Below are positions 4,477 through 33,471 of a stretch of 34,753 nucleotides of DNA, piece after piece. The translations under genes and the position numbers were made by a program. Origin of the DNA: Gammaproteobacteria bacterium (GTDB lineage Bacteria; Pseudomonadota; Gammaproteobacteria; SZUA-229); contig JAPHRB010000136.1 in assembly GCA_026197015.1 (NCBI GenBank), forward strand, positions 1 to 34,753, written 5' to 3'. Below the pieces are notes generated by a model. The model ran no database searches. It was not told the DNA's origin and saw only the letters and a program-made list of their open reading frames with translations. Positions within the stretch are counted from its first letter, which is position 1. Every line of letters begins with the position of its first letter.

Positions 4477-5301
4477 ATGAGTCATATTTTATCTTTGTGT
4501 GAAACTGGAAAGTCTGTAGTTATGGGTATATTAAATACCACTCCAGATTCGTTTTCAGACGGTGGTCAGTTTGTAGCTGTCGAGTCTGCATTGGCACAAG
4601 CTTTGAAAATGCAGCGTGAAGGTGCTGATATAATTGATGTGGGAGGGGAGTCAACTCGCCCTGGCGCAAAAAGCGTTTCTACAGCTGATGAGATTAATCG
4701 CGTTATTCCTGTAATTAAGGCAATTCGTAAACAAAGCGATGTGCTTGTTTCAATTGACACCAGTAAAGCGGAAGTCATGAGAGAAGCCGTAGAAGCCGGT
4801 GCAAATATTATAAACGATGTAAATGCTTTACGTGCGCAAGGCGCATTAGATGTCTGTGCTCAATTGGCTGTTCCTGTTTGTATAATGCATATGCAGGGTG
4901 AACCGAGAACCATGCAGGCTAAACCAGTATACGATGATGTGGTTGATGATATAAAGCAGTTTTTCGAGTTGCGAATTGAAGCGTGTATTAAAGCCGGAAT
5001 TAAAAGGCAGAATATAATATTAGACCCGGGTTTTGGTTTTGGTAAAACGTTAGAGCATAATTTGCAACTTTTAAAAAGACTGGGTGAATTTCAGGTGTTT
5101 GAATTACCTGTTCTGGTCGGTTTGTCTCGTAAAAGCATGTTAGGTAAAATTTTGAATGAGTCAGCAGCAGGTAATCGGCTGTATGCCAGTGTTGCGGCAG
5201 CGGTTCTGGCTAGTGTAAATGGAGCGAGTTTGTTTCGAGTGCACGATGTTAAAGCAACAGTGGACGCGTTAAAAGTTTGTGATGCTTTGAATGGTATGTA
5301 A
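4477..5301 (+). CDS. folP: dihydropteroate synthase
   Basis: MGILNTTPDSFSDGG, IDVGGESTRPGA, DPGFGFGK, SRKS, RVHDV motifs. Confidence 0.97.
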   Translation: MSHILSLCETGKSVVMGILNTTPDSFSDGGQFVAVESALAQALKMQREGADIIDVGGESTRPGAKSVSTADEINRVIPVIKAIRKQSDVLVSIDTSKAEVMREAVEAGANIINDVNALRAQGALDVCAQLAVPVCIMHMQGEPRTMQAKPVYDDVVDDIKQFFELRIEACIKAGIKRQNIILDPGFGFGKTLEHNLQLLKRLGEFQVFELPVLVGLSRKSMLGKILNESAAGNRLYASVAAAVLASVNGASLFRVHDVKATVDALKVCDALNGM

Positions 5302-6921: not shown

Positions 6922-7674
6922 ATGCGTAAGCCAATGGTAGCCGGCAACTGGAAAATGAATGGTTCCTGTGAGTCTGTAAAAACACTTGTTGAAGGTATCA
7001 AAGAAGGCATGGGATTAGTTAATACTGCAGAAGTTGTGGTTTGCCCACCTGCTGTTTTTATCCCCCGTGTATCGGGCGCAGTTGATGGTACCGATATTAA
7101 AGTTGGATCACAAAATATTTGTGATGCAGATAAAGGCGCATTTACCGGTGAAATTTCTGGTGAAATGCTCAAAGAAATTGGTTGTGAATATGCAATTGTG
7201 GGTCACTCTGAGCGCCGTGCGCTGTATGGTGAAAATGACGAATTAGTTGCAAAACGCTTTGCAGCAGCCCGTCGAAATGGATTGAAGCCAATTTTTTGTA
7301 TTGGTGAAACACTTGAAGAACGTGAATCAGGTGTCACAAACGATGTTTGTTCTCGTCAAATAGATGCGGTTATCGCGCTAGAGGGTGTTGAGGCGCTTGC
7401 TGATGGCGTTATTGCGTATGAGCCTGTATGGGCAATAGGCACAGGAAAAACAGCTTCGCCTGAGCAGGCGCAGGAAGTACATGCATTTATTCGTGGCAAG
7501 ATAGCGGCTTTAAATGCTGATGTGGCTGCAGGGTTGCAAATTTTATACGGTGGCTCTATGAATGCAGGAAATGCAAAAGAGTTAATTGGTCAGCCTGATA
7601 TTGATGGTGGCCTAATCGGCGGTGCTTCTTTAACGCCTGCTGATTTTCTAGCAATCTGCCGGGCGGCGGGTTAA
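6922..7674 (+). CDS. tpiA: triosephosphate isomerase
   Basis: AGNWKMN, GHSERR, AYEPVWAIGTG, YGGS, GGASL motifs. Confidence 0.98.
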   Translation: MRKPMVAGNWKMNGSCESVKTLVEGIKEGMGLVNTAEVVVCPPAVFIPRVSGAVDGTDIKVGSQNICDADKGAFTGEISGEMLKEIGCEYAIVGHSERRALYGENDELVAKRFAAARRNGLKPIFCIGETLEERESGVTNDVCSRQIDAVIALEGVEALADGVIAYEPVWAIGTGKTASPEQAQEVHAFIRGKIAALNADVAAGLQILYGGSMNAGNAKELIGQPDIDGGLIGGASLTPADFLAICRAAG

Positions 7675-19510: not shown

Positions 19511-19580
19511 TGTAGGTTCGAATTTATTCGAGCGGTTAAAGTTTTTAATATCGTAATTTGCAAATAAATTGGCACCGACA
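19511..19580. repeat. GTAG-type REP inverted doublet (REPIN-like), second copy degenerate
   Basis: TGTAGGTTCGAATTTATTCGAGC (19511-19533; GTAG plus palindrome) and reverse-complement copy TGTCGGTGCCAATTTATTTGCAA (19580-19558); 16 of the first 20 positions identical. Confidence 0.6.
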
Positions 19581-19602
19581 AAGAAAGAATTAATAGAAAA
19601 TA

Positions 19603-19642
19603 ATTTGCGTTTATTCGCGTGTATTTGCGGACAAACTGCTTT
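19603..19642. repeat. solo right arm of the 10-bp-periodic intergenic element also found between infB and rbfA
   Basis: ATTTGCGTTTATTCGCGTGTATTTGCGGACAA matches the reverse complement of 31425-31456 at 29/32, followed by ACTGCTTT. Confidence 0.8.
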
Positions 19643-19664
19643 TAATACTTAAGTGGAACAACAC

Positions 19665-26575: not shown

Positions 26576-26652
<77 letters not shown>

Positions 26653-26691
26653 AATTTTAGTAGGTTGATAAGTTGTTGATCCGCAGGGGTC

Positions 26692-26776
26692 TTCGGCTTA
26701 TGAGCCCAACGAGTAGTCGGTCTCATGGTGTAGTATCTGTGGGAAGGTCGCAGATTCAAATCCTGCCCCGGCTACC
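26692..26776. repeat. tRNA-fMet-derived repeat: inverted anticodon arm plus direct copy of the 3' half
   Basis: 26692-26713 is the reverse complement of 26599-26620 at 20/22; 26743-26776 matches 26618-26651 at 31/34. Confidence 0.85.
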
Positions 26777-28889: not shown

Positions 28890-31412
28890 ATGTCACAAGT
28901 TACAGTTAAGCAGCTCTCCGAGGTCGTAGGTGCACCGGTAGAGCGATTATTAGAACAATTAAAAGATGCAGGCATAGTGGTTGCTGATGCTGATTCGGAA
29001 ATAACCGATGAGCAGAAGTTTAAGTTACTTGATCATTTGCGTAATAGTCATGGTAAGAATACGACTGCGACTGCAGGTAAAGGCAAAATTACACTTAAGC
29101 GTAAATCTACGGCTTCTTTAAAAAGCTCGGGTAGTAAAGCCGTTAATGTAGAAATTCGTAAAAAACGTAGTATCTCAAAACTAGGTGACTCAGAGTCGAC
29201 TGATGATGAGAAAGAAAAAGAAAAGGCCGATATTCAGCGTTTAATGGCTGAAAAAGAAGCTCGTGAAGCAGAACGTGCAGAAGCAGAAGTTGCCGCAATA
29301 GAAAAATCTAAAGAAGCGGCAAAGCAGCGTGAAGACGATGAACAGGCGAAAAAAGAAGCAGCAGTAAAATCGCGTATTGAAGCAGAGCAGCAGGCAAAAG
29401 TTGTGGCTAATGCAAAAGCGCGTGGTGCTGCAAAAGCTGAAGCATCTACGGCGCCAGGTTCTGATGATCGTAACAAGGGGGCGCAGAAAGCAACCGCTAA
29501 AGGTCATAATAAAGGCGATACTCGTTATGGCAGAAAAGAACTACATGTTGCTTCAGGTAAAAAGGCCCGCGGAAAAAAACAAAGCCGTAAAGTGTTAGCA
29601 ACACAGAATGCAGAAGCAAAACATGCGTTCGAAAAACCAGTTGAAAAAATTGTTTATGATGTGGATGTCCCTGAAACTATTAAAGTTTCAGATCTTGCTA
29701 TCAAGATGTCTATGAAAGCCGGTGAGATGATTAAAACAATGATGACGATGGGGGTTATGGCCACCATTAATCAGGTTATTGATCAGGAAACGGCAATTTT
29801 GATTGTTGAAGAGCTGGGTCATAATGCAGTGGCATCTTCTGCCGATGATCGTGAAAATACATTATTGGCGTCAGCAGGAGACGAGTTGCATGATGAGCAG
29901 CCACGTCCACCTGTAGTGACTATTATGGGTCATGTTGACCATGGTAAAACGTCTCTACTCGATTATATTCGCCAGGCTAAAGTTGCATCGGGCGAGGCGG
30001 GTGGTATTACTCAGCACATCGGTGCATACCATGTTGAAACAGATAAAGGTGTTATCACCTTTTTAGATACACCGGGACATGCCGCGTTTACATCAATGCG
30101 TGCCCGTGGTGCTCAGGCAACTGATATTGTTATCCTGGTTGTTGCTGCAGATGATGGTGTTATGCCGCAAACAATTGAAGCAATACAGCATTCTAAAGCA
30201 GCTGGTGTGCCTTTGATTGTAGCTGTTAACAAAATTGATAAAGAAGGTGCAGACCTTGATCGAGTTAAGACGGAACTGGGAAGTCATGAAATTATTCCTG
30301 AGGACTGGGGCGGCGAAAATATTTTCGTTAATGTTTCCGCTAAAACTGGAGAGGGTATCGATGATTTACTCGAGGCCATTAGTTTAACAGCTGAAATGTT
30401 AGAATTTAAGGCACCTACTAAAGGGCCTGCTCAGGGTATTGTTGTTGAGGCGACACTGGATAAAGGTCGAGGTGTTACGACAACCGTTCTTGTTCAAAAA
30501 GGTAGTCTGAAAAAAGGCGATATTTTGTTAGCGGGTAATGAATACGGTCGTGTTCGTGCATTATTTGACGAAAATGGCAAACAGATTGATGAAGCCGGGC
30601 CTTCTATACCGGTAGTGGTATTGGGTTTGTCCGGTACACCTTCTGCAGGTGATTTAACTCAGGTAATGGCTGATGAGCGAACTGCGCGTGAACTAGCGGG
30701 TAGTCGAAGTCATAAAGAACGTGATGTTAAGTTTGCTGCACAACAACAGGCCAAGTTAGACTCTCTGTTTACTAATCTGGGTAAAGGTGAAGTTAATTAC
30801 CTGAATATTCTGCTTAAAGCAGACGTACAAGGCAGTCTTGAAGCGATTAAAGAATCATTGTTCAAACTGGCAGCTGATAACGAAGAAGTTGATGTGGCTA
30901 TTATTGGTTCTGGCGTAGGTGGTATTAATGATACTGACATCAGCCTGGCAGCTGCATCTAATGCTGTTGTATTTGGTTTTAATGTGCGAGCAGATGCCGC
31001 GGCAAGAAAATCTGTAGCTGAACGCGGTGTTGATATGCGTTATTACAGTGTTATCTACGATTTAATAGACGATGTTAAACAAGCGTTAACCGGAATGCTT
31101 TCTGCGGAATACCGTGAAGATATTATTGGTCTGGCTGAAGTTAAAGATGTATTTAAATCACCAAAGTTTGGTTTAATTGCCGGCTCAATTGTAACGGAAG
31201 GTACTATCAGGAAAGATCAGCCAATTCGTGTTTTACGTGATAACGTAGTTATTTATGAAGGTGAGCTTGAGTCACTTAGACGTTTCAAAGATGCGGTTGA
31301 AGAGGTTAGAAGTGGTACAGAGTGTGGCATCGGTGTTAAGAATTATAACGATGTTAAAGTTGGTGACCAGATAGAAGTCTTTGAACGTGTTGAAGTCGAG
31401 CGGACTTTGTAA
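28890..31412 (+). CDS. infB: translation initiation factor IF-2
   Basis: [38 protein letters not shown]. Confidence 0.98.
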
Positions 31413-31424
31413 CTTATAAGCATA

Positions 31425-31566
31425 TTGTCCGCGAATAAACGCAAATAAACGCAAATAAAAAATAAACACAAATACTTTGGTTTATGCGCCTGTGGCGCAT
31501 TTCACCTCACAGATGTTTTGATTTTGTTTGCGTTAATTCACGTCCATTTGCGGAGAAATTGCTTTT
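31425..31566. repeat. non-coding inverted-repeat element with 10-bp-periodic arms and central hairpin (MITE-like)
   Basis: Left arm TTGTC-CGCGAATAAA-CGCAAATAAA-CGCAAAT (31425-31456); right arm 31526-31557 complementary at 24/32; central ATGCGCC-TGT-GGCGCAT; trailing ATTGCTTTT. Confidence 0.8.
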
Positions 31567-31594
31567 GCTTTAAAAACAGACAGATTATTAATTA

Positions 31595-31963
31595 ATGCCA
31601 AAAGAATATTCCCGATCACAGCGTATGGCCGAACAGGTTCGTAGAGAACTTGCTGAACTAGTGCGTGATGAAATTAAAGATCCCCGTGTAAACTGGGTGT
31701 CTTTTACAGCGGTTAGAGTTAGTCGCGATTTAAGCAATGCAGTCATTTACTTTACTGTGCTCAATGATGATGAACGTGAGCAGGCTGAAGAAGGTTTGAA
31801 TAAAGCGAGTGGTTTTATTCGTAGAGAACTAGGTAAACGTATTCGATCACGTATCGTGCCATCTTTAAGGTTTGTTTATGATGAAAGTATTGAACGCGGC
31901 ACTTCAATGGAATCATTAATTGCTAAAGCACGTTCTAGCGATGCGGATGCATCTGACGATTGA
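31595..31963 (+). CDS. rbfA: ribosome-binding factor A
   Basis: SRSQRMAEQVRRELA, KDPR, VSRDLS, ASGFIR, PSLRFVYDESIERG. Confidence 0.97.
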   Translation: MPKEYSRSQRMAEQVRRELAELVRDEIKDPRVNWVSFTAVRVSRDLSNAVIYFTVLNDDEREQAEEGLNKASGFIRRELGKRIRSRIVPSLRFVYDESIERGTSMESLIAKARSSDADASDD

Positions 31964-31965
31964 TT

Positions 31966-32066
31966 TTTTGATATAGAGACACGGAGGCACAGAGAAAAGC
32001 GGTTTTACTGTTTTGCGTCTAGCGCAAATAATAAAATAAGCACTGTGTCTCGCGTCAAAAGCTTTT
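31966..32066. repeat. degenerate inverted-repeat element with an 8-bp-periodic arm and central hairpin
   Basis: TTTTGA..AGAGACAC-GGAGGCAC-AGAG left arm; CACTGTGTCTCGCGTCAAAA right arm (reverse complement TTTTGACGCGAGACACAGTG); central TTTGCG-TCTAG-CGCAAA; trailing GCTTTT. Confidence 0.55.
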
Positions 32067-32077
32067 AGGTTTTACAC

Positions 32078-32983
32078 ATGGCTCGTAAAAAGAAAGGTCG
32101 CGCCGTTCATGGCGTTGTACTTCTAGATAAACCATTAAAAATTTCCTCCAATCATGCGTTGCAGCGAGTAAAACGTTTGTTTGATGCAAATAAAGCAGGT
32201 CATACTGGTAGCCTGGATCCTCTGGCGAGTGGTATGTTGCCAATTTGTCTGGGCGAAGCGACTAAAGTATCGGCGTTTCTACTGGATGCAGATAAAACCT
32301 ATCGATTCAAATGCCAGTTAGGATCAAAAACGGCTACAGGTGATGCAGAAGGTGAGGTAATAGAAAGTCGACCTTTTGAGCATATACAGTTAGCGGATAT
32401 TGAAAAGTACTTGCCTGAGCTGACCGGCGATATTATGCAGGTGCCGCCAATGTACTCTGCATTAAAAAAAGATGGCCAACGTTTATATGATCTGGCGCGT
32501 CAGGGAATAGAAGTTGAACGTAAAGCCAGACCGGTAACAATTTATACATTAGAGCTGATATCGTTTGAAAATGGTGAAGTTGAGTTAGAAACAAGGTGTT
32601 CTAAAGGCACTTACGTACGAACTTTGGCTGAAGATCTGGGTGAAAAACTGGGCTGTGGTGCCTATGTTACGGAGTTAAGGCGTACATCAGTAGGGCCATA
32701 TAAATCTCAAATGTTAACCATGGATCAGTTAATGGAAATTGCTGAAAGTGGTTTTGCTGCATTAGATGATGTGATGCTAGATATAGACAGTGGTATTGAA
32801 GACTGGCCGATAGTGGAGCTTGATGCAGATAGTGCTTATTATATTAAGCTGGGTCAGCCGGTACAGATAGCGCGTGCTCCGACAGAAGGTTTAGTACGGG
32901 TTTATGATGGTGATCAGTTTATCGGTATTGGGAATATTCAGGATGATGGCCGGGTTGCCCCGAAACGCATGATGAATTTGTAG
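32078..32983 (+). CDS. truB: tRNA pseudouridine(55) synthase
   Basis: LLDKP, KAGHTGSLDPLASG, QVPPMYSALK, CSKGTYVRTL. Confidence 0.98.
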   Translation: MARKKKGRAVHGVVLLDKPLKISSNHALQRVKRLFDANKAGHTGSLDPLASGMLPICLGEATKVSAFLLDADKTYRFKCQLGSKTATGDAEGEVIESRPFEHIQLADIEKYLPELTGDIMQVPPMYSALKKDGQRLYDLARQGIEVERKARPVTIYTLELISFENGEVELETRCSKGTYVRTLAEDLGEKLGCGAYVTELRRTSVGPYKSQMLTMDQLMEIAESGFAALDDVMLDIDSGIEDWPIVELDADSAYYIKLGQPVQIARAPTEGLVRVYDGDQFIGIGNIQDDGRVAPKRMMNL

Positions 32984-32996
32984 TGGACTGAACATC

Positions 32997-33041
32997 TCCA
33001 TCGGGAAAAGGGCGCAAAAAGCGCGACCTTTCCCCGATGGA
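32997..33041. repeat. long GC-rich hairpin after truB
   Basis: TCCATCGGGAAAAGG / CCTTTCCCCGATGGA (14/15) capped by GCGC-AAAAA-GCGC; no U tract. Confidence 0.6.
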
Positions 33042-33128
33042 TAAGTGCCAGAACAGTGTAATATGCTCTTAGATAGAATAATTATGCCAAATCCCTGAAT
33101 AATCAGGGTTTAAGGCGAACAAAAGCTT

Positions 33129-33156: not shown

Positions 33157-33201
33157 CCCGCTTCAATTTTTGAGGCAAACATAAAGTCAGGAGTTTTGAC
33201 A

Positions 33202-33471
33202 ATGTCAATGACAGCTACAGCTAAGGCTGAAGTAGTATCTAAACATGCACGTGCTGAAGGCGATACAGGATCACCAGAAGTACAGGTAGCCCTGTTAACT
33301 ACACGTATAGTGCAGCTTACAGAGCATTTTAAAGAACATAAGCAAGATCACCACTCTCGTCGCGGTCTTTTACGCATGGTAAACCAGCGTCGTAAACTAC
33401 TAGACTATTTAAAGTCTAAAAATACAGATCGTTATAAAGATCTTATTGCAAATCTTGGTCTACGTCGTTAA
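33202..33471 (+). CDS. rpsO: 30S ribosomal protein S15
   Basis: [33 protein letters not shown]; ATG 33202 with AGGAG Shine-Dalgarno gives 89 aa. Confidence 0.98.

Follow-up and report, generated by a model that had tools for sequence, protein, structure and literature searches.

A gene-less foldback element in the infB-rbfA spacer and its probable partnership with a PD-(D/E)XK nuclease

Populations of repetitive extragenic palindromic (REP) sequences and of REP doublets (REPINs) that accompany a single-copy gene for a REP-associated tyrosine transposase (RAYT) are described, in the accessible parts of the respective reports, as REPtrons (10.1101/2022.05.22.493013; PMC3116915). According to the accessible part of a further report, the single-copy RAYT gene occupies a fixed intergenic space and is flanked by its own repeats, which decay after loss of the gene; a sister strain retained a large repeat population after the gene was lost (10.1101/2021.07.10.451892). 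Here we describe a palindromic element that lies between infB and rbfA of a gammaproteobacterium (lineage SZUA-229; assembly GCA_026197015.1) and for which REPIN/RAYT, by analogy, appears to be the closest known system. It was found in the window, the whole 34,753-nucleotide stretch of DNA analyzed (contig JAPHRB010000136.1, our contig C93). On balance, the element at 31418-31566 is probably a gene-less, non-autonomous member of a foldback family that is maintained by a PD-(D/E)XK nuclease in a partnership resembling that of REPINs with RAYTs.

Other known elements invite comparison. Eukaryotic foldback (FB) transposons and miniature inverted-repeat transposable elements (MITEs) possess long inverted arms built of short tandem subrepeats, and few copies have a coding region. 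Free-standing homing genes include seg and mob of phages, and among homing enzymes there are PD-(D/E)XK proteins such as I-Ssp6803I. MITEs derived from an insertion sequence (IS) are marked by terminal inverted repeats like those of an autonomous IS and by a target-site duplication. Intervening sequences bearing an open reading frame (ORF) are known in the 23S rRNA of Coxiella and Leptospira; insertions of this kind lie within an rRNA helix and are removed by RNase III.

The genome to which the window belongs (G000) comprises 2.35 Mb on 175 contigs, has a GC content of 39.4% and is 74.9% complete; 31 genomes, the related ones being numbered from G001, were compared for gene matches and arm counts. 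Arms composed of 10-nt units (CGCRAATRAA) are designated type 1 and sister arms of 9-nt units (CRCRGAG) type 2. The infB-rbfA spacer measures 182 bp, and the element starts 5 nt past the infB stop codon. Its parts, followed by the flanking genes, are:

31418-31566, no strand: whole gene-less foldback element, type 1, ~150 bp (nhmmer profile match 31418-31570, E 4.5e-23; fold)
31418-31429, plus strand: left outer end AAGCATATTGTC, a class B end (AAAAGCAnnnnTGTC) (sequence)
31430-31459, plus strand: left arm, three tandem 10-nt units CGCRAATAAA (sequence, repeat search)
31484-31500, no strand: central GC-rich perfect 7-bp hairpin ATGCGCC-TGT-GGCGCAT (sequence, alignment with relatives)
31523-31552, minus strand: right arm, three inverse units, partly decayed (sequence, repeat search)
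31553-31566, plus strand: right outer end GAGAAATTGCTTTT, a class B end (sequence, arm-end comparison)
28890-31412, plus strand: infB (IF-2), upstream flanking gene (ORF; TIGR00487, E 2.6e-250)
31595-31963, plus strand: rbfA (RbfA), downstream flanking gene (ORF; TIGR00082, E 1.1e-32)

The original prediction, made from the letters of the window without database searches, had placed a palindromic element with arms of 10-nt units and a perfect 7-bp hairpin in this spacer, and the sequence, a repeat search and folds confirm it. The left-arm units are, in order, CGCGAATAAA, CGCAAATAAA and CGCAAATAAA; the third had been called partial but is complete and is followed by a degenerate fourth at 31460-31474. 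Read on the minus strand, the right-arm units are CGCAAATGGA, CGTGAATTAA and CGCAAACAAA, two of which are degenerate. In the repeat search, direct repeats recurred every 10 nt, and inverted arms were 81% complementary over 26 nt and 71% over 63 nt. As RNA, the element folds into one long hairpin (-53.9 kcal/mol, z -4.9) and as DNA it reaches -33.2 kcal/mol (z -4.8), with 0 of 200 shuffles as good in either case; in the hairpin fold, 31418-22 are paired with 31562-66. An intrinsic terminator would have a short GC-rich stem with a U tract immediately behind it; here, the GC-rich base of a long hairpin abuts T-rich ends. A terminator consensus scan of 31000-32000 gave 0 sites and a promoter scan of the spacer nothing; of the Rfam covariance models run on the window, two tRNAs alone reached the gathering score and the element was unmatched. 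In a metagenome contig 96.5% like the window, the left arm of the infB-rbfA element (at 31430) is one 10-nt unit shorter, so that the number of units varies among close relatives. The metagenome contigs that join across infB and rbfA without a spacer are less similar to the window and constitute weak evidence.

In G000 the element is one of many. Arms were counted as matches to a two-unit pattern with at most one mismatch, with the reversed pattern as control, and 72 matches were obtained against 10 for the control; with up to two substitutions there were 86. From 20 plus-then-minus arm pairs the 17 short ones gave a clear aligned consensus, the first half of which contains an A-rich outer end, two to four units and a AAAATCAAAAGC stretch, and the second half a GC-rich hairpin (TGTGCCGCAGGCACA or ATGCGCCnnnGGCGCAT), two to four inverse units and a T-rich outer end. 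With an nhmmer profile, 62 matches were obtained, which merged into 33 loci; 21 loci reach 110 bp or more, and the other 12 represent half elements or arms of longer cassettes. All 33 loci lie between long ORFs, two being spanned by ORFs of 121-126 aa alone that were taken as spurious. Twenty loci have co-directional flanking genes, nine have convergent and none has divergent ones, the other four being at contig ends, and therefore every copy is situated just 3' of at least one gene. The preference measured is one for such 3' positions and not, as in the original prediction, for essential operons themselves. Read outward, the 65 arm ends are T-rich throughout and belong to a small number of outer-end classes (TTTTCTTTTTCTT, GACAAnnnTGCTTTT and GTTTCCCCTGCyTTTGAC), with the class B end on about 20 of them. 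Arm match scores were 23.8 within an element and 21.7 between elements, the observed value being reached by 321 of 10,000 permutations, and for the window copy they were 23 and 23.0. The conserved feature is the sequence of the units rather than their pairing; arms held to the family consensus without pair-specific compensation fit recognition of the units by a protein.

A dispersed family had been deduced from a 29/32 match to the arm between nuoI and nuoJ, which was found again: the 32-mer matches 19603-19634 on the minus strand with 3 mismatches, where 0 such matches are expected from 100 shuffles. The deduction proved correct well beyond this copy, with 33 loci in G000 and tens to hundreds of arm matches in at least 13 relatives. 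Chance or low complexity as the origin of the repeats is ruled out by the shuffles and the reversed-pattern control. The second copy in the window consists of:

19511-19652, no strand: nuoI-nuoJ spacer (142 bp), a half-decayed family copy with its left half eroded (site comparison)
19603-19643, minus strand: preserved arm of three units (19603-19629) and class B end GACAAACTGCTTTT (19630-19643) (32-mer match; nhmmer 19596-19648)

One arm pair of G000 encloses a gene. On contig C109, between carA and carB, arms 466 bp apart tightly surround an ORF of 129 aa with the motif GFLESVY, in the order AAGAAAAAGAAAA, three units of CGCAAATGAA, the ORF, three units of TTCATTTGCG and TTTTCTTTTTCTT. The ORF passes the GxxExxY family test (TIGR04256, 133.3 bits with a cut-off of 35, E 4.9e-39) and matches PF13366 (PDDEXK_3; 133 bits with a cut-off of 22, E 8.4e-39). 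Both the GxxExxY motif and the PD-(D/E)XK residues are present, and E21, D60, E70, K72 and Q84 are invariant in 11 sequences. The ratio of nonsynonymous to synonymous divergence (dN/dS) is 0.06-0.20 in the seven pairs for which dS could be computed. Judged by its intact catalytic motif and purifying selection, the nuclease looks functional. An AlphaFold2 model was of moderate confidence (pLDDT 74) and gave no Foldseek match at E<=1e-3; the best VIA-align Z scores, 5-6.9, are below the trust level and belong mostly to PD-(D/E)XK proteins (AF1548, Hjc, Bax1, R.SwaI), and a search of the Protein Data Bank with the family sequence profile found no relative.

G000 contains this one intact nuclease gene against 33 loci. 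Apart from it, the family is represented in G000 by a single match, a broken gene (one TAA and a frame change) between trpG and trpD (C38, 13179-13504) that is boxed by different periodic arms of 9-nt units GCCGCAGAGACTCGGAGGTCGCAGAGG; G004 has a matching pseudogene there and G015 intact or partial genes. Among the 31 related genomes, 12 have a GxxExxY match, and the genes form two clades. Clade 1 (G[TVA]GFLE) is always found between carA and carB and always with CGCAAATRAA arms, so that G000 and eight relatives carry the gene cassette in type-1 arms at this junction; it is intact in G000, G002, G003, G004, G005, G009 and G017 and broken in G008 (one TAG) and G016 (TGA and a shift). Clade 2 (GPGLLE), to which the trpG-trpD pseudogene belongs, has arm units CACAGAGGA/CACGGAGGT, CGCAGAGAC or CGCAAAG.

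The abundance of the arms was compared with the state of the cognate gene. The seven genomes with an intact clade-1 gene have 72 (G000), 267, 108, 92, 79, 77 and 109 (G017) type-1 matches, those with a broken gene 84 (G008) and 14 (G016), and those without the gene 245 (G007), 42 (G015), 27, 21, 17, 3, 2, 2 and 1, the remaining 13 having 0. Type-2 matches number 235 in G012, 100 in G015 and 95 in G028, which are the genomes whose intact clade-2 gene has type-2 arms; in the other 28 genomes there are 72 (G002), 19, 9 (G004), 5 (G000) and otherwise at most 1, the clade-2 genes of G000 and G004 being broken. Arm counts thus follow the matching intact gene in two independent arm/nuclease pairs, which have different distributions within one family. 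In G007 carB is absent and therefore the whole locus has been lost. The 5' region of carB was also unmatched in G006, G010 and G014, the completeness of the four genomes being 68-100%; some members of the family may have lost carAB.

Comparison of orthologous sites identifies the elements as insertions. The carA-carB spacer is 500-552 bp long (833 bp in G003) in nine of 22 genomes, which belong to three genera, and 0-66 bp in the other 13, among them two of the same genus, G001 and G011, with 5 bp each. Between infB and rbfA, 13 of 25 genomes have 0-53 bp: G003 and G007, free of the element, contain a small plain hairpin in 53 bp, and 11 others have 0-32 bp. A type-1 element is present there in G000, G002, G005 and G009, a degenerate type-1 element in G001, and a type-2 element in G011 and in G004, the latter with flanks 96% identical to those of G000. 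At nuoI-nuoJ (20 genomes), the decayed copy is common to G000 and G004, remnants occur in G002 and G010, and 10 genomes have 0-24 bp. Since all these junctions are tight (0-53 bp) in many relatives, the elements are insertions, and the presence/absence polymorphism anticipated at infB-rbfA is found among the 25 genomes in the form of the element type, the sister type, relics or 0-53 bp.

Filled sites are also subject to turnover. Six further G000 sites were compared with five relatives. One is filled in all six genomes, the occupant being type 1, either of two kinds of type 2 or a degenerate version; others are flipped in G004, have a 42-bp internal deletion or retain one unit per arm. In G001 and G011, which have no clade-1 gene, orthologous sites are empty or hold eroded relics. 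G000 and G004 share nine sites with flanks of 92-98% identity, and at seven of these the element itself is not the same: the arm type is swapped at two, the element is flipped at two and deleted or shrunken at two, and at one the gene cassette is highly diverged. The identity of this cassette, 47-82%, drops exactly from the carA stop to the carB start within flanks of 85-100%, and the dS of the nuclease is 1.37 compared with 0.19-0.33 for carA and carB. Taken from the sequences, the contrast in dS points to cassette replacement or local hypermutation. In the nuclease tree, G004 groups with G003/G005 (support 80/82).

The association of nuclease and arms extends beyond the family. A profile scan of genome contigs gave 557 GxxExxY relatives, of which the best 80 loci were taken, 79 with both flanks; they span Pseudomonadota, Bacteroidota, Planctomycetota, Verrucomicrobiota, Chloroflexota, Acidobacteriota, Spirochaetota, Myxococcota and others. 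At 67 of these 79 loci, the gene lies between inverted arms that exceed the 95th percentile of a control with shuffled partners and consist of tandem 8-11-nt units with the core CRCNRAK. Together with the arm pair around the TIGR04256 ORF at carA-carB, these loci substantiate the link to GxxExxY genes that the original prediction had made. The closest outside relatives among the best 80, in Candidatus Thiodiazotropha (60-64% identity), have matching GTCCGCAAATGAACGCAAATG arms. One Phycisphaeraceae chromosome contains 305 arm matches (control 3) and three GxxExxY genes.

Several points weigh against a family maintained by the nuclease. The genomes compared are related and thus non-independent samples, and three of them have many arms without the cognate gene: G007 with 245 type-1 matches and neither a GxxExxY match nor carB, G015 with 42 type-1 matches and no clade-1 gene, and G002 with 72 type-2 matches and no clade-2 gene. 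The action of the nuclease on the arms, the mechanism of copying and the effect on RNA are what we infer, and to our knowledge a PD-(D/E)XK nuclease is incapable of strand transfer alone. The gene-less copies have their own central module, made up of the GC hairpin, which according to the alignment with relatives is common to type-1 and type-2 gene-less elements, and the AAAATCAAAAGC stretch. This module is missing from the gene cassette, so that the copies are not simple deletion derivatives; of the earlier description as gene-less, non-autonomous derivatives of a nuclease element, the first part holds and derivation in the strict sense is less certain. A sister relationship between the nucleases of G000 and G004 was not rejected in an approximately unbiased (AU) test (p 0.153; the protein is short), and support for a horizontal replacement of the cassette therefore comes solely from the dS contrast. 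The target duplications considered in the original prediction were not found, in that comparison of filled with empty alleles at six sites (carA-carB, nuoI-nuoJ and four others) defined no consistent one; the flanks of truly empty relatives, 73-89% identical, are too diverged to place the boundaries of the insertions exactly, and at one site the empty allele already contains the T-rich "end". The sharing of alleles at site C108-2 (by G004 and G011, and by G001 and G008) could have arisen by recombination between species rather than by transposition.

Some of these points would be expected if the hairpin repeats were primary, as terminator-like or otherwise RNA-structural sequences spread by recombination or an unknown route, and the GxxExxY gene were a selfish passenger, a free-standing nuclease gene of the homing type that has settled at the center of one element at a favored junction, with no role in spreading the gene-less copies. 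Such a passenger fits the gene-less central module common to both types, the cassette's occurrence at the single junction carA-carB in nine genomes of three genera and its absence from the closest outgroups G001 and G011, the high dS and sharp boundaries of the G000/G004 cassette, which resemble homing-type replacement, and the arms retained in G007. It is nevertheless unlikely: every nuclease clade has its own arm unit, across phyla, arm abundance tracks the intact cognate genes in two independent pairs, arms decay where the gene is absent or broken, and the closeness of the arms of all copies to one consensus is left unexplained. Rather improbable is an RNA-level device under host selection, a bidirectional terminator or attenuator or an RNase III processing or stabilizing hairpin similar to rRNA intervening sequences, with the infB-rbfA copy regulating rbfA-truB. 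The long stable fold, the A-rich and T-rich tracts beside the stem on most copies, the location of all copies 3' of a gene with none between divergent genes, and the small hairpin at this spacer in G003 and G007 are in line with such a device. Arguing against it are the negative scan for simple terminators, the asymmetric center, which at co-directional sites is oriented three times with and five times against transcription and is flipped in close relatives, the empty infB-rbfA site of many relatives and an arm complementarity that is not kept pair by pair; it also leaves the nuclease link unexplained, and it is compatible with nuclease maintenance as a side effect.

That the unit arrays are sites of a host regulator or nucleoid protein, and the copies conserved regulatory modules instead of mobile DNA, is very unlikely. 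The 10-nt unit spacing and the conservation of the arms as unit sequence, not as complementary pairs, would suit such sites, but close relatives differ at orthologous sites in the presence, type or orientation of the copy, none lies in a divergent promoter region, the unit period ranges from 8 to 11 nt across the family, and it is the GxxExxY gene alone that co-occurs with the arms. There is hardly any likelihood that a conventional transposase, be it a RAYT/IS200-type Y1 enzyme or that of a DDE insertion sequence with matching ends, moves the copies as ordinary REPINs or MITEs. Y1_Tnp (PF01797) matches do exist (two in G000, eight in G007, seven in G004 and five in G002), yet none of the six loci examined within 1.5 kb, in a survey confined to PF01797 transposases, has type-1 or type-2 arms, G017 has 109 arm matches and no Y1_Tnp match, and no target duplication is evident. 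At C115 (13919-14239) of G000, the inverted repeat that flanks a Y1_Tnp ORF with one TGA is a different one (GGGGTCAGGTCTTGCAT / ATGCAAGACCTGACCCC), of which tandem copies follow downstream; this locus is probably a separate REP/RAYT-like system.

Measured against the accessible parts of the REPIN/RAYT reports, the family shares with that system short extragenic palindromic doublets that number tens to hundreds, a single enzyme gene per family, which is flanked by repeats of that family in an intergenic space that is constant across relatives, and an own repeat type for each enzyme clade. Repeat decay upon loss or breakage of the gene is likewise common to both (here G001 and G011, G016 with 14 matches, and for type 2 G000 with 5 and G004 with 9; G007 with 245 and G008 with 84 are exceptions), as is a large population after gene loss in one genome, G007 here and the sister strain there. 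The enzyme differs, being a PD-(D/E)XK nuclease of ~125 aa and not an HUH/Y1 transposase; no arms flank the six Y1 loci, and the Y1 genes of the present genomes carry other repeats. The arms are arrays of tandem 8-11-nt units whereas a REP is a single sequence of 20-40 nt, the gene is located inside operon junctions, and the divergence of the G000/G004 cassettes greatly exceeds that of the flanks, a poor fit to strict vertical descent.

Like eukaryotic FB elements and MITEs, the family has subrepeat arms, mostly gene-less copies and frequent flips and internal deletions; unlike them, it is bacterial and much smaller, lacks a target duplication at the sites compared and has no known DDE transposase, the transposases surveyed being those of PF01797. 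With homing genes it has in common a small nuclease gene placed exactly at a tight junction of conserved genes, sporadic occupancy and sharp divergence boundaries, but those are not known to have either a dispersed gene-less repeat population or unit-array arms. The 23S rRNA intervening sequences also have a small selfish ORF between inverted arms and a long stem in the transcript. In the present family, however, all copies lie between protein-coding genes, the ORF is PF13366 and not S23p/PF05635, the arms consist of tandem units, and many gene-less copies are distributed over the genome.

Other repeats were seen near the family. Another palindromic repeat, GCCCTGAAAGGGCGAAGCGCAGGAGCGCG, abuts type-1 arms in G000 at C94 (~5020-5052), C110 (~7280-7310) and C173 (~19000), which suggests nested or composite elements. 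At C110 (6945-7279), 335 bp between type-1 arms contain two palindromes (TTCCACGCGGAA... and TCCCACGCGGGA...) and no credible ORF, and a 160-bp variant of this segment is found at C25 (1708-1867). A module, TTGACGTGCAkGrAkGyACTAAT..., recurs beside or inside type-1 elements at infB-rbfA of G009 and G005 and in G000 at C59 (~10840) and C99 (~868). Unrelated palindromic inserts occupy nuoI-nuoJ of G008 (CTCCCCTC...GGGGGAG) and infB-rbfA of G024, a 196-bp spacer with its own repeats. In the window itself, a 23-nt inverted copy (26691-26713), 91% complementary to the anticodon-arm region (26599-26621) of a tRNA (26576-26649), is found 69 nt farther on, immediately behind the tRNA gene and before the nusA-infB operon. 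A hairpin at 32992-33046, with 24-nt arms of 83% complementarity and a 7-nt loop, follows directly on an ORF ending at 32983 and precedes the ORF 33196-33471; it resembles an ordinary terminator and is outside the element family.

In the model of a nuclease-maintained family, the unit arrays would be the cognate repeats of the small GxxExxY nuclease (TIGR04256/PF13366), which would recognize them as duplex or as extruded hairpin and cut at the ends of the arrays or close to them. Repair and replication by the host would then copy, replace, flip, shrink or delete the content between the outer ends, gene-less copies would spread to positions just 3' of genes, and the repeats would be kept near the consensus, as REPINs are by RAYT transposases. 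As a side effect, the infB-rbfA transcript would contain an imperfect hairpin of ~60 pairs flanked by A-rich and U-rich tracts. In element-free relatives a small hairpin occupies the position of the element, which makes an effect on this transcript likely, and the element probably acts as an attenuator, processing site or stabilizer. In E. coli, a partial terminator follows infB.

The literature searched by family names and arm words, outside of subscription journals and preprint supplements, contained no description of this pairing of repeat and enzyme, and for foldback or restriction-endonuclease-like elements the search turned up eukaryotic papers alone. In the accessible part of a survey of PD-(D/E)XK proteins, the function of PF13366 is listed as "Unknown" (PMC3424549). 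PF13366/TIGR04256 is a large family of many phyla to which no function has been assigned, and the flanking arrays are its first candidate DNA substrate. More tentatively, GxxExxY nucleases and unit-array foldback repeats may form an unrecognized class of mobile or semi-domesticated bacterial DNA that spans phyla, in which a lone PD-(D/E)XK nuclease, unaided by a transposase or recombinase, would drive copying and site-specific cassette replacement at gene junctions and terminator positions, homogenize hundreds of hairpins per genome and rewrite spacers such as that between infB and rbfA. For annotation, the elements account for over-long spacers in tight housekeeping operons (infB-rbfA, nuoI-nuoJ, carA-carB and trpG-trpD). 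If the nuclease maintains the repeats, it would represent a second, mechanistically unrelated solution to the REPIN/RAYT lifestyle and a new route by which bacteria acquire and exchange operon-junction hairpins, with effects on termination, mRNA processing and assembly breaks.

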